From IMG/VR virus record IMGVR_UViG_2778261463_000008, positions 1-8,853 of that record: DNA of 8,853 nucleotides; one strand, 5' to 3'. Below, one piece after another: positions 5,544 to 8,853 of the stretch. Each line of letters starts with the position of its first letter. The first letter of the stretch is position 1. The position numbers and the translations under genes are program-made. This stretch comes from a virus (Duplodnaviria; Heunggongvirae; Uroviricota; Caudoviricetes). The notes beneath the pieces are model-generated. The model was not told the DNA's origin. It made no database searches and worked only from the letters and a program-made list of their open reading frames with translations.

Positions 5544-5752
5544 ACCAGAATGATATTGAAGCCATGATCCAGCGTTATATCGATGCGGAAATGGCAGTTC
5601 TGGACGGAAAATCCGTCACTTTTAATGGTCAGCAGATGACCATGGAAAATCTGTCCGAGATCCGACGGGGGCGTCAGGAGTGGGAGCGGCGTCTTGCTGC
5701 CATGACTGCGCGGCGACGGGGGGATCCGGGATATAAACTGGCGAGGTTCTGA
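5540..5752 (+). CDS. Head-tail joining protein (lambda gpW-like), 70 aa
   Basis: Small ORF between terminase and portal. ATG overlaps the terminase stop (ATGA), with GGAGG 6 nt upstream. Its stop overlaps the portal ATG (TGATG). Size and position match lambda gpW. The ATG at 5534 is an alternative start. Confidence 0.75.
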   Translation: MNQNDIEAMIQRYIDAEMAVLDGKSVTFNGQQMTMENLSEIRRGRQEWERRLAAMTARRRGDPGYKLARF

Positions 5753-6657
5753 TGGCAATTCTGGATGATGTGATTGGTGCTTTTTCACCAGGCTGGAAAG
5801 CTGCGAGGTTGCGGTCAAGAGCATTAATTCAGGCCTATGAGGCAGTGAAACCTACCCGCACACACAAAGCCCGACGGGAAAACCGTTCTGCCGACCAGCT
5901 CAGTAAGTACGGGGCGGTATCCCTGCGGGAGCAGGCCCGTTTTCTGGATATCAATCATGACCTTGTCATCGGTGCTTTCGACAAGCTTGAGGAGCGGGTG
6001 ATTGGCGCAAAAGGGATCATTGTTGAACCCCAGCCATTACTGAAAAACGGTGATATGGCTACAGACCTGGCAATGATTATCCGTCGTTTGTGGGCGGAAT
6101 GGTCTGTCAGCCCGGATGTGACCGGGCAGCATACGCGCCCCATGCTCGAGCGTTTGTTGCTGCGTACCTGGTTACGTGATGGTGAAGTGTTTGCCCAGAT
6201 GGTCAGTGGTGCAGGGGCCGGACTGGTGCGGACTGCCGGCGTGCCTTTCTGGCTCGAGGCAATGGAGCCGGATTTTGTACCCATGTTCAGTGATGAGTCT
6301 GCGGGAATGAATCAGGGGGTTTTTCTGGATGAGTGGGGCAGGCCGAAAAAATACCTGGTTTATAAAAATTATCCGGTCACCGGGCGACAGAGTGATACCA
6401 AAGAGATCGCCGCTGAAAATATGGTGCATCTGAAGTTTACCCGCCGGCTGCATCAGACGCGTGGCACATCCATGTTGTCAGGTGTGCTGATGCGGATCAG
6501 CGCGCTTAAGGAATATGAAGATTCCGAGCTGACAGCGGCGCGCATTGCTGCAGCACTGGGGCTGTATATCCGTAAAGGAGACGGGCAGGATTATGAGGCC
6601 CCCGTTCTTCCCATTCTCCTGACAGTTACCGAGTCCATACGGGAACACACAGACTGA
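5752..6657 (+). CDS. Portal protein (lambda gpB family), N-terminal fragment, disrupted at ~6613
   Basis: Aligns with recalled lambda gpB through a shared ...QTRG... block up to ...EAPVLP (residue 287, nt 6612). The last 14 codons (ILLTVTESIREHTD) and the stop are non-homologous read-through into the junction. The portal C-terminal half is found on the opposite strand at ~8200-8807. Confidence 0.85.
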   Translation: MAILDDVIGAFSPGWKAARLRSRALIQAYEAVKPTRTHKARRENRSADQLSKYGAVSLREQARFLDINHDLVIGAFDKLEERVIGAKGIIVEPQPLLKNGDMATDLAMIIRRLWAEWSVSPDVTGQHTRPMLERLLLRTWLRDGEVFAQMVSGAGAGLVRTAGVPFWLEAMEPDFVPMFSDESAGMNQGVFLDEWGRPKKYLVYKNYPVTGRQSDTKEIAAENMVHLKFTRRLHQTRGTSMLSGVLMRISALKEYEDSELTAARIAAALGLYIRKGDGQDYEAPVLPILLTVTESIREHTD

Positions 6658-6667
6658 AAGGGGGGCA

Positions 6668-7138
6668 TCATGAACCACCCCGATCGCCTTTTTCGCCCTT
6701 CGGCCCCTGAGGTCCTGCCGGGCCACGCTCACCTGTATCACCCTTTGGCCCCTGAGGTCCCGGCTCTCCCTTTTCTCCTCTCGGGCCCGTGTCCCCCTTT
6801 TCTCCCCTGGCACCACCAAAGTTAATCCTGACAGCGACGACATCACTCCCGGTACCAGCCTCTTCCCAGACAACCCCGACCAGCGGATCAGAGCCGCTGT
6901 TAGTCAGCTGAACTTTTCCGGACTTCAGATAAACCTTCTTACCCGTTTTCATATCATCCGTTTTCAGCTTAGGCAGCATAAACACACCTTCGGTCATGCC
7001 GTCGCCTGTTTCACCCTGTGGAATATCGGTCAGCGCCACCGCAAAAACATCACCCACCTGCACCAGATCTCCGCTGCTGATGGCTGCACTGGCAACAATC
7101 GCCACCGTTTTTCCTTCTTCTACAAAATTCTTTGCCAT
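6668..7138 (-). CDS. Head decoration-like protein (DUF2190 family) with C-terminal collagen-like Gly-X-Y repeat tail, 156 aa
   Basis: ATG at 7138 with GGAGA 7 nt upstream. N-terminal ~110 aa ([30 protein letters not shown]...[15 protein letters not shown]) matches the DUF2190 pattern. The C-terminal ~45 aa is uninterrupted G-X-Y ([43 protein letters not shown]). Confidence 0.8.
6696..6760. repeat. Direct repeat of a 45-bp unit inside the collagen-like coding region
   Basis: CCCTTCGGCCCCTGAGGTCC (6696-6715) and CCCTTTGGCCCCTGAGGTCC (6741-6760) are 19/20 identical and 45 bp apart, which is five G-X-Y triplets. Confidence 0.7.
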
Positions 7139-7185
7139 AACTGTCTCCACACAGCCCCGTTCAGGGGCTGATTTCAGGTACAAAA

Positions 7186-7204
7186 AAAGCCCTTACGGGC
7201 CATC
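7186..7204 (-). terminator. Weak Rho-independent terminator or attenuator after the 521-aa ORF
   Basis: On the minus strand: GGCCC-GTAA-GGGCT (5-bp stem including one G-U pair) followed by TTTTTTTG. It sits between the stop of 7225..8790 and the start of the decoration gene. A second 7-bp hairpin (CAGCCCC-GTTCA-GGGGCTG, 7152-7170) has no T tract. Confidence 0.3.
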
Positions 7205-7224
7205 AGAGTTGTTGTCTGCGATGT

Positions 7225-8790
7225 TTACGCCGTACATTTCACCAGACCGCGGTGATCAACTGGCGCGACACCGGCGTCAATACGCACTTTCGTTGTCACG
7301 CCATCCACACTGAACCCCTCCATCTGATCAATATATGGCGTATCCACACCGTTGAGATAAGCCACTTCAATCGTATCGGAGCCTTTTGACGCAGCCAGGT
7401 AGAAGGTGGTCTGGCTGTTATCATCAAGACGAGGCTCTGCAATAACGGTCGCAAAATCTTTCACCGGGTTAATAATACCGGCGTTAATGTCAGCCCCCTT
7501 GACACTTGAGGAGCGAATGACCTGGTTAGCAACAGACTCCATCGCCGTCGGTACCAGTACGAACGCAGGACGAATATTCAGATGACGCTCCCCCTCTTTC
7601 TGAACGCGCATCAACTGGCGGGCTTTATCCAGCGATGCCACGTCCATTGCAGCGCTCTCCAGTACGTTTGCATGTTTCGCTTTATCGAACAGACTTACAT
7701 TATCTGTGGAGATTTTCGGGTTAGACGTCAGAATGGCATAAACCAGATCGGCAATAGTGGATTTCGCCGCACGGCCCAGTTTCATCGGGACATCGGTCAG
7801 CATATTCAGATCATCATTGATAATGGCCTGACGGGTGATACTGAACAGCTCGCCATAGGTCGCCAGTGCAATAGTGGCCTGTTTATCTCCGGTGGTGATG
7901 TATTTATATTCCGCCCCTTCACGCACCTGACGCAGAGCACTGAAGCCCCCCATACCCACACGATGAGCAATTTTAAAATCAGACAACTGACCTTTCCGCG
8001 TCCACTGTTCATAGGTTTCAGGGGCATCTTCCCAGCCCTGCAGAATGGCTTTGTTCGCAACATCCAGCAGAATATTACCGAAGTCAGACGTACTGTGTGT
8101 GAACGCCGCACCGACCATCTGCATCGGGTTATAACCGGAAACCCCAATACCCCGTTCAGTCAGTGACATACGGGCATATTCACGCAGGGTCATCCCGTTG
8201 TAGACATTATCACGTTCGGTTTTTTCAAATCCGGCACGCGCCATCAGCGCCTGGCGGATCCCGTCCCCCACAAAATTACCGTTACGACCACCTGCACGTA
8301 CCCAGTCTGATTCTGTCGCCGCTCCACCACGAATCTGAATTTTCCAGGCTTCAGCTTCCTTGACAGGATCAATCCACGGCATGACCGGACCAGAATAGGT
8401 TGCGTTATATAGTGTTTTCATATCCACATCCGACGTAATTTTCAGCAATCCCGCGGCCACAACCATATTCAGCCATGCCCGGTACACCGGACGGGTTACA
8501 GCACCAATAAAACAGTCCTGCAGGATCAGATAACCATCTGTGGACTCAACCAGCTCCTGTCGCTGGGCACTGTAGGTACCGTTATAATTACGTGCTGCAC
8601 TGGAAAAACTCAGACGTGTGCCCGCCGCCACGGCCCGCAACTGACCATTACGAAAAGTTTCCAGGTTAGTGTTAGGCCGATCAGATTTGACCATGCCGAT
8701 ATCTTCCCCCTTACGCAGATCGTCATAAATAATTCCGGGTGTGATATGCAGTTCCCGATCATTATCTTTATTCGTCACGGCAAGGTGCAC
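7225..8790 (-). CDS. Portal protein C-terminal half fused in frame to a ~320-aa head-morphogenesis domain (protease/scaffold or capsid-like); 521 aa
   Basis: Residues ~1-190 align with the recalled C-terminal region of lambda gpB, with consistent spacing across several blocks (FRNGQLRAVAAGTRLSFSSAARNY, WIDPVKEAEAWKIQIRGGAATE, IRQALMARAG). No stop codon and no internal ribosome-binding site before the downstream ~320 aa. The annotated start is a GTG directly after an in-frame TAA at 8806-8808; there is no ATG until codon 33, so this is an internal gene fragment, not a native start. Confidence 0.75.
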   Translation of the reverse strand: MHLAVTNKDNDRELHITPGIIYDDLRKGEDIGMVKSDRPNTNLETFRNGQLRAVAAGTRLSFSSAARNYNGTYSAQRQELVESTDGYLILQDCFIGAVTRPVYRAWLNMVVAAGLLKITSDVDMKTLYNATYSGPVMPWIDPVKEAEAWKIQIRGGAATESDWVRAGGRNGNFVGDGIRQALMARAGFEKTERDNVYNGMTLREYARMSLTERGIGVSGYNPMQMVGAAFTHSTSDFGNILLDVANKAILQGWEDAPETYEQWTRKGQLSDFKIAHRVGMGGFSALRQVREGAEYKYITTGDKQATIALATYGELFSITRQAIINDDLNMLTDVPMKLGRAAKSTIADLVYAILTSNPKISTDNVSLFDKAKHANVLESAAMDVASLDKARQLMRVQKEGERHLNIRPAFVLVPTAMESVANQVIRSSSVKGADINAGIINPVKDFATVIAEPRLDDNSQTTFYLAASKGSDTIEVAYLNGVDTPYIDQMEGFSVDGVTTKVRIDAGVAPVDHRGLVKCTA

Positions 8791-8853
8791 CTTACTCCGG
8801 CTCAGTTATCCATGCTTCTTGAAGGTATCAACTGGAAGCACCCGAAACGAACG

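Follow-up and report, generated by a model that had tools for sequence, protein, structure and literature searches.

Among the capsid appendages that have been described, the head fibre of phage phi29 is the closest architectural analogue of the protein reported here. Residues 1-110 of its gp8.5 form a trimeric base at quasi-three-fold sites, and residues 117-280 form a trimeric fibre that extends from the end of this base (PMC6542822). A second related system is gp12 of SPP1, a collagen-like, trimeric and non-essential capsid accessory protein (PMC6316719; PMC7602432), which shows that capsid decoration by a short collagen-like trimer is possible. SPP1 gp12 consists of 64 aa, lacks a cement-type beta domain, and binds at the hexamer centre, a quasi-six-fold position (PMC7602432; PMC6316719). 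The solved relatives of the cement domain considered below were described as trimeric and as occupying the trimeric interfaces of HK97-type capsids. Gp48 of phiCD508 is organised as trimers, with 420 copies on a T=7 head, and the cement protein of Ralstonia phage GP4 has an Ig-like fold and forms trimers on quasi-three-fold axes. Collagen is also known from E. coli prophages, where the type in question belongs to the side tail fibres EPclA-D; the statement of an earlier, sequence-only reading of this DNA that collagen-like repeats are more usual in tail fibres thus holds for this collagen type. Recombinant EPclA is trimeric, and its collagen domain, which contains no hydroxyproline, forms a triple helix with a melting temperature of 42 C (Ghosh et al. 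2012, PMC3368898). The collagen segments of E. coli prophage proteins are 48-322 aa long, with an expected rise of 2.88 A per residue (PMC3368898).

The window, which here means the whole 8,853-nt stretch of Caudoviricetes DNA that was analysed, carries a gene in which modules of both kinds are joined: a cement domain is continued, via G108, by a collagen-like tail. The cement-type capsid decoration protein is a known kind of protein, and what is new here is its probable extension into a collagen head fibre. As in phi29 gp8.5, a base fold of the cement type, here a predicted one, is followed by a C-terminal extension, but the phi29 fibre is a supercoiled helix-turn-helix of 164 residues whereas the extension is collagen-like here; the base of phi29 gp8.5 attaches to Ig-like domains in the phi29 capsid protein, and no sequence similarity was detectable between the two proteins. 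The cement-collagen protein is not of the SPP1 gp12 type, since it has a cement domain of 107 aa and the relatives of this domain bind at three-fold sites; no homology between the two proteins was detected. Its tail is of the same collagen type as EPclA-D, sharing their GP(Q/P)-GPK-G(D/E) pattern and their preferences at the X and Y positions. Unlike those tail fibres, however, it sits on a head protein and ends in GGS, and its 48-aa collagen lies at the short end of the 48-322 aa range. Neither the PfN (PF08400) nor the PfC domain of EPclA-D was matched in the 156-aa protein, and there is no room in it for a PCoil-like segment.

The complete cement-collagen gene lies at 6668..7138 on the minus strand and encodes 156 aa, from an ATG at 7138-7136 to a TGA at 6670-6668, as read from the ORF listing and the sequence. 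The open frame can be extended upstream to a TTG at 7183; the start is placed at 7138 because MAKNF begins all homologues and a Shine-Dalgarno-like GGAG, read from the sequence at 7145..7148 (minus), lies 6 nt upstream of the ATG. At the other end, the TGA stop overlaps the ATG of the head-tail adaptor gene in an ATGA (6668..6671, minus, read from the sequence). The annotated start of a "DNA breaking-rejoining protein" in the Ch1 genome maps to this very overlap, and the called cement-collagen and adaptor genes of intact loci overlap as well (10001-10471 and 10468-10743). In the window, only the first 70 nt of the adaptor gene are present (6602..6671, minus, by alignment to loci L001 and L010), the gene being cut at a rearrangement junction. 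The adaptor of the intact loci belongs to the Gifsy-2 family of Pfam (PF13856), and in six of these loci (L004, L005, L008-L010, L013) the cement-collagen gene is placed between a fusion of ClpP protease and major capsid protein (MCP) and this adaptor, with the portal gene before and the tail genes after. The order from capsid to cement-collagen to adaptor is kept in the inverted segment of the window. Between the capsid stop and the cement start (7188-7201, minus), GGCCCGTAAGGGCT resembles a terminator hairpin and precedes a T run; one such site is about what chance would give in this 1.1-kb stretch (0.8 expected).

The capsid cement, or head-decoration, domain comprises aa 1-107 (6818..7138, minus). 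PF09956 (Phage_cement_2, formerly DUF2190) matches aa 7-105 with an E-value of 7e-21 and 75 bits against a cut-off of 24, spanning profile positions 2-103 of 103, and PHROG 122 ("head decoration") matches aa 1-106 with an E-value of 1.3e-45 over profile positions 1-108 of 109. An AF2 monomer model, calculated from a 61-sequence alignment, has a mean pLDDT of 84.7, with values above 90 over most of the cement domain and below 50 in the tail, where low values are expected of a monomer model. Comparison of the model with known folds identified the predicted cement domain as the small beta-barrel decoration fold common to solved cement proteins. The comparison scores were 10.6 for phiCD508 gp48, 9.5 for the HFTV1 capsid stabilisation protein (CSP), 8.5 for both Sf11 gp40 and the Pam3 cement protein, 7.7 for the TW1 stabilising protein, 7.3 for the FCWL1 and XM1 decoration proteins, 6.7 for the N-terminal base of phi29 head-fibre gp8.5, 6.2 for E217 gp24, and 4.9 for lambda gpD. 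Pfam, PHROG 122 and the predicted fold therefore agree with the sequence-only reading, in which the N-terminal domain had been called DUF2190-type and decoration-like. The link to solved structures is drawn from the fold comparison because sequence searches of the PDB provided none: they returned collagens only, and the cement-domain profile gave nothing significant. None of the fold matches, among them phiCD508 gp48, HFTV1 CSP, TW1 CSP, Pam3 gp6, E217 gp24 and lambda gpD, was described in the fold-search results as having a collagen tail. A literature search on DUF2190 found no functional study.

The last beta strand of the domain is retained ahead of the tail, and reads VAVRINF in the tailed allele versus VPVKLNV in the common allele. 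All 60 aligned homologues have this strand and then either end or continue for at most about 12 residues. Extensions of about 12 residues, rich in Gly, Ala, Ser and Thr (e.g., GAGISATTSGS), were seen in distant homologues from Erwinia and relatives (P0317, P0331, P0334) at the point where the collagen tail begins here; judging from these three, the cement C-terminus tolerates additions. In BFVD, the same predicted fold occurs as a domain within proteins of 500-950 aa (e.g., A0A6G8R632_2, A0A0F7L3R5, A0A6J5PNV2), several of which are annotated as tail-fibre-like; some of the latter may be capsid fibres instead.

The collagen-like tail (aa 109-156; 6671..6814, minus) is matched by PF01391 over aa 109-154, with an E-value of 1.8e-7 and 31.2 bits against a cut-off of 27.2. 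It consists of 15 G-X-Y triplets plus GGS, with 16 glycines in register and no interruption, so that the run of about 15 uninterrupted triplets noted earlier is confirmed. Seven prolines, 17 charged residues out of 49 and five KG[DE] motifs characterise its composition; the X position is occupied by Pro or by D/E and the Y position by K/R, and the GP(Q/P)-GPK-G(D/E) motif occurs twice (GPQ-GPK-GDT and GPQ-GPK-GEK). In the Pfam analysis of the 156 aa, PF09956, PF01391 and a sub-threshold match to PF22758 were the only results. At the DNA level, the tail had been described as a near-identical 45-bp unit, and this description was not upheld. Tandem Repeats Finder (TRF) reported no array in the tail even at a minimum score of 30, and a repeat search gave a single pair of 38 nt, 45 nt apart and 82% identical. 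The two 45-nt units are identical at 32 of 45 positions (71%), and the self-identity of the whole tail is 58% at a shift of 45 as against 41-51% at other multiples of 9. By eye, a nearly identical core is limited to about 21 nt, GGACCTCAGGGGCC[A/G]AAGGG.

The tailed allele is real, intact and rare, and in these searches it was restricted to one E. coli prophage lineage. Among 5426 complete E. coli genomes, the tail was found in two, GF4 (chicken meat) and Ch1 (chicken faeces), so that both complete genomes with this allele come from chickens. In both, PGAP labels the gene "incomplete; missing C-terminus", and this truncated-pseudogene label hides the allele in the standard annotation of both complete RefSeq genomes. 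One of at least 551 IMG/VR relatives (L014) carries the tail. The tailed allele was present in none of 50,697 phage records and hence in no isolated phage among them, while the untailed allele was found in the isolated phages mEp460, cdtI, Ayreon and Tritos. The GTDB species representatives yielded five relatives, none of them tailed. A Yersinia protein that aligned to query residues 1-121 proved to be an ordinary untailed protein.

In the assembly collection, the identical 156-aa protein is present on at least 174 contigs (251 index blocks). A full-length collinear lambdoid structural module was found in six of the ten places shown, which are the six loci named above. The order in this module is DUF1441 protein, large terminase, portal, ClpP-protease/major-capsid fusion, cement-collagen gene and Gifsy-2-family adaptor, followed by Z, U, tail tube, G/T and tape measure, and by M, L, K, I and J where the locus reaches that far. 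All 13 tailed loci that were fetched, most of them retrieved by exact identity, encode 156 aa; ten of these genes are the same as that of the window and two differ by one synonymous change. In a collection of 5.8 billion proteins, queried with the whole protein and with a profile of the cement domain alone, PF09956 and PF01391 were combined in a single cluster, P0001 (44 members), none of whose 15 listed members exceeds 156 aa. The domain-profile query gave 280 matches, and among the 120 listed all except P0001 are 83-186 aa long and lack PF01391. The whole-protein search of protein representatives was dominated by long collagens and revealed no further cement-collagen fusions; P0139, P0236 and P0239, which showed long aligned stretches, are unrelated collagen proteins. 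The comparison of G-X-Y presence and number across homologues, which had been suggested beforehand, thus shows one tailed cluster and close homologues that stop where the tail starts. Many members of P0001 are partial proteins of 53-102 aa, and a separate cluster, P0025, contains 214 sequences of a partial 88-aa protein whose contigs measure roughly 400 nt. It seems that short-read assemblies are interrupted at the collagen region or immediately ahead of it, and for this reason the allele would be under-counted.

The common allele encodes a 107-aa DUF2190 protein that ends in VPVKLNV, and its gene overlaps the next one. About 1830 records from the 5426 complete E. coli genomes match the region, and the listed matches begin at window position 6851, approximately codon 96 of the cement gene. 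When the intact tailed locus L010 was compared by blastn with the canonical locus L002, the two alleles differed by a mosaic patch (6642..6850, minus) in which 209 nt replace 58 nt. This patch is composed of the last 12 or so cement codons, the 147-nt tail and the first 10 or so codons of the adaptor gene, while the DNA for cement aa 1-95 and the C-terminal part of the MCP is 98.7-99.3% identical to the common allele. Because both flanks of the tail are diverged too, the arrangement looks as if it had been imported as a unit from a diverged relative, and not assembled by insertion of a fragment.

That the tail might be a captured piece of a tail fibre had also been proposed, and this proposal is weakly supported. 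In its favour, a peptide of 22 aa from the tail recurs unchanged in a repeat within a prophage tail-fibre gene (L094). Against it, 13 of the 22 codons for this peptide are identical, which is close to the level that shared codon usage predicts (in simulations drawn from tail-fibre collagen codon usage, 9.8 per comparison and a mean of 12.6 for the best of nine), and the flanks within the 209-nt patch are diverged. In DNA comparisons with tail-fibre genes, the closest match reached 77% over 129 nt, or 88.7% when limited to 62 nt. Since the codon identity is at the simulated level, the idea of a recent tail-fibre capture was rejected, there being no evidence for it, and the tail is taken to be of the same collagen type. 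The Ch1 allele (L001) is the only divergent tailed allele; it has D134E and three synonymous changes, all of which keep G-X-Y. These four substitutions are clustered in nt 402-429 of the cement gene (28 nt), where they raise the best local identity to tail-fibre collagen from 88.7% to 91.9% over 62 nt, and the segment may be a small gene-conversion patch.

We consider it reasonably likely that the protein is a structural component of an mEp460-like lambdoid prophage, in which cement trimers at the three-fold sites of the capsid would each carry their three tails as one collagen triple-helix spike. A triple-helical spike is the best reading because the predicted fold matches those of trimeric decoration proteins and of the phi29 head-fibre base. 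It had been pointed out before that a trimeric decoration protein would suit a collagen triple helix, and the solved relatives, which are trimers at three-fold capsid positions, are in line with this idea. According to the proposal, the cement domain would trimerise on the HK97-type capsid lattice, at its three-fold and quasi-three-fold junctions, and the trimer would serve as the nucleating and registering domain for the helix. The three 48-residue tails, with their C-termini presumably directed outwards, would zip into a single collagen triple helix projecting from the capsid. The spike would be about 13 nm long (45 residues x 2.88 A), and there would be about 140 thin collagen spikes per head if T=7, a value assumed from the phiCD508 example and not derived from this phage. 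The layout of the phi29 head fibre would thus have been built with a collagen module that is normally found in the side tail fibres of E. coli prophages. Without hydroxyproline, 15 triplets may confer only marginal stability.

As to function, the most likely role of the proposed spike would be a non-essential one, in weak and reversible adhesion to cell or mucosal surfaces or in dispersal of virions, by analogy with phi29 head fibres, SPP1 gp12, Hoc, pb10 and the capsid fibres of flagellotropic phages. Added capsid strength is unlikely, as phages with the untailed allele have nearly the same capsid-binding part and major capsid protein. At the identity given above for cement residues 1-95 and the capsid protein, capsid binding should be unchanged and the tail would be an add-on. 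A more specific version, that the 140 or so collagen head fibres act as a host-mimicking adhesin for gut mucus, extracellular matrix, collagen receptors or a bacterial surface structure and so retain virions in the intestine, appears improbable to us; an adhesin role is speculative because the tail has no terminal globular domain.

Several other explanations were weighed against the collagen spike. The cement domain could be normal and the Gly-X-Y tail a flexible, unstructured and neutral passenger acquired by recombination, forming no helix and having no function. We regard this as less likely than the spike, but still plausible: the tail is short, with 15 triplets, has neither hydroxyproline nor a C-terminal trimerisation knob, and falls below a pLDDT of 50 in the AF2 model, while the tailed allele is rare and the untailed one evidently suffices in isolated phages such as mEp460 and cdtI. 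However, a neutral passenger accords poorly with 16 uninterrupted glycines in register, with X and Y preferences that are exactly those of a collagen type known to form a stable triple helix, with direct fusion to a domain whose relatives are obligate trimers, and with the fact that the only substitutions seen keep G-X-Y.

It is very unlikely that the gene is a pseudogene or a fusion artefact, i.e., that a piece of tail-fibre collagen came to lie at the end of a DUF2190 gene by insertion or through mis-assembly. Such an origin might be suspected from the partial-gene call of PGAP in both complete genomes, from the matches of the tail to tail-fibre PHROGs and tail-fibre genes, from the rearranged state of the prophage in the window and in GF4, and from the several partial cluster members (53-102 aa) on short contigs. 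Nevertheless, no stop interrupts the frame before the one that overlaps the next start codon, the same 471-nt gene recurs in closed genomes and in collinear structural modules, and the last beta strand of the cement domain is kept before the tail. Divergence on both flanks of the patch indicates import of a pre-existing arrangement, and the tail-fibre match is no closer than 77% over 129 nt, with a codon identity no better than shared usage predicts. The ATGA overlap and the identical protein in collinear modules likewise argue against the clear fusion artefact with a tail-fibre gene that the sequence-only reading had named as the observation that would count against it. Least likely of the readings considered is a contingency locus, in which the 45-bp repeats would expand and contract by slippage or by recombination with tail-fibre repeats and produce head fibres of variable length; a repeat number that varies by slippage or recombination had been envisaged when the repeat was first noticed. 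A 14-nt exact repeat 45 nt apart, the many 45-bp collagen units elsewhere in the same genomes (in the tail-fibre gene, L094) and the clustered Ch1 changes with their gain in tail-fibre identity speak for it. On the other hand, the units are identical at only 32 of 45 positions, TRF finds no array, all 13 tailed loci have the same length, and the one tailed cluster includes no longer protein among its listed members. Slippage-driven length variation was therefore rejected, the repeat being weak and length variants absent from these sequences.

If the capsid does carry the tail as a triple helix, one protein would combine a head fibre of the phi29 type with the collagen-like accessory of SPP1, and would do so in a lambdoid coliphage that is amenable to genetics and has, in its untailed allele, an almost isogenic control. 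It would also represent a minimal collagen free of hydroxyproline, for which a small trimeric beta domain would provide nucleation, displayed at high copy on a phage head, which would be useful for studies of collagen folding and for display engineering. The biological pay-off is modest unless a function of the fibre is shown.

The three examined copies in rearranged prophages are those of the window, GF4 and L006. Compared with intact prophages, a 2.2-kb block of the window (6602-8780) is inverted relative to the terminase and portal genes on its left, with 4-nt overlaps at the inversion junctions (CCGT, 6602-6605, on the left). The block contains the 5' end of the adaptor gene, the cement-collagen gene, the C-terminal 353 capsid codons and a portal fragment. 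This inversion divides the portal gene into an N-terminal part at 5752-6605 (plus) and a later fragment at 8780-8286 (minus). A 1068-bp deletion at 8282-8285 (L010 7786-8853, overlap TTAC) has cost the portal its C-terminus and the protease/major-capsid fusion its ClpP-protease half, and leaves an in-frame portal-capsid chimera of 521 aa (ORF 7225-8790, minus), in which Pfam recognises Phage_portal_2 (aa 10-91) and Phage_capsid_4 (aa 226-518). The last 73 nt of the window (8781-8853) match, at 100% identity, an internal stretch of an IS66-family tnpB that was found in 1449 E. coli genomes, and since this piece is joined directly to the portal fragment, it marks a third illegitimate junction. 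With its portal split and its protease part deleted, the prophage in the window cannot build heads, although the cement-collagen gene itself is intact.

The GF4 locus (L003, NZ_CP172217.1 2912000-2942000) and L006 show a different and larger rearrangement, in which the block from cement to tape measure is inverted relative to portal and terminase; in both, the portal breakpoint is the one found in the window at position 8282, and a copy of IS150 adjoins the terminase gene in GF4. P0018 (181 aa, on a Logan contig of 13,126 nt) is a frameshifted gene that runs in another frame through the collagen and into the portal antisense, as in window 6478-6668, so that the inversion junction of the window occurs in at least one other public assembly. 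At the left end of the window, positions 734-1041 have no match of 150 nt or more in L004, L010, L012 and L013. The length of the DUF1327 ORF (269-742, plus) varies, being 157 aa in the window and L009, 104 aa in L005, and 311 aa in several prophages that are similar in other respects (L004, L010, L012, L013).
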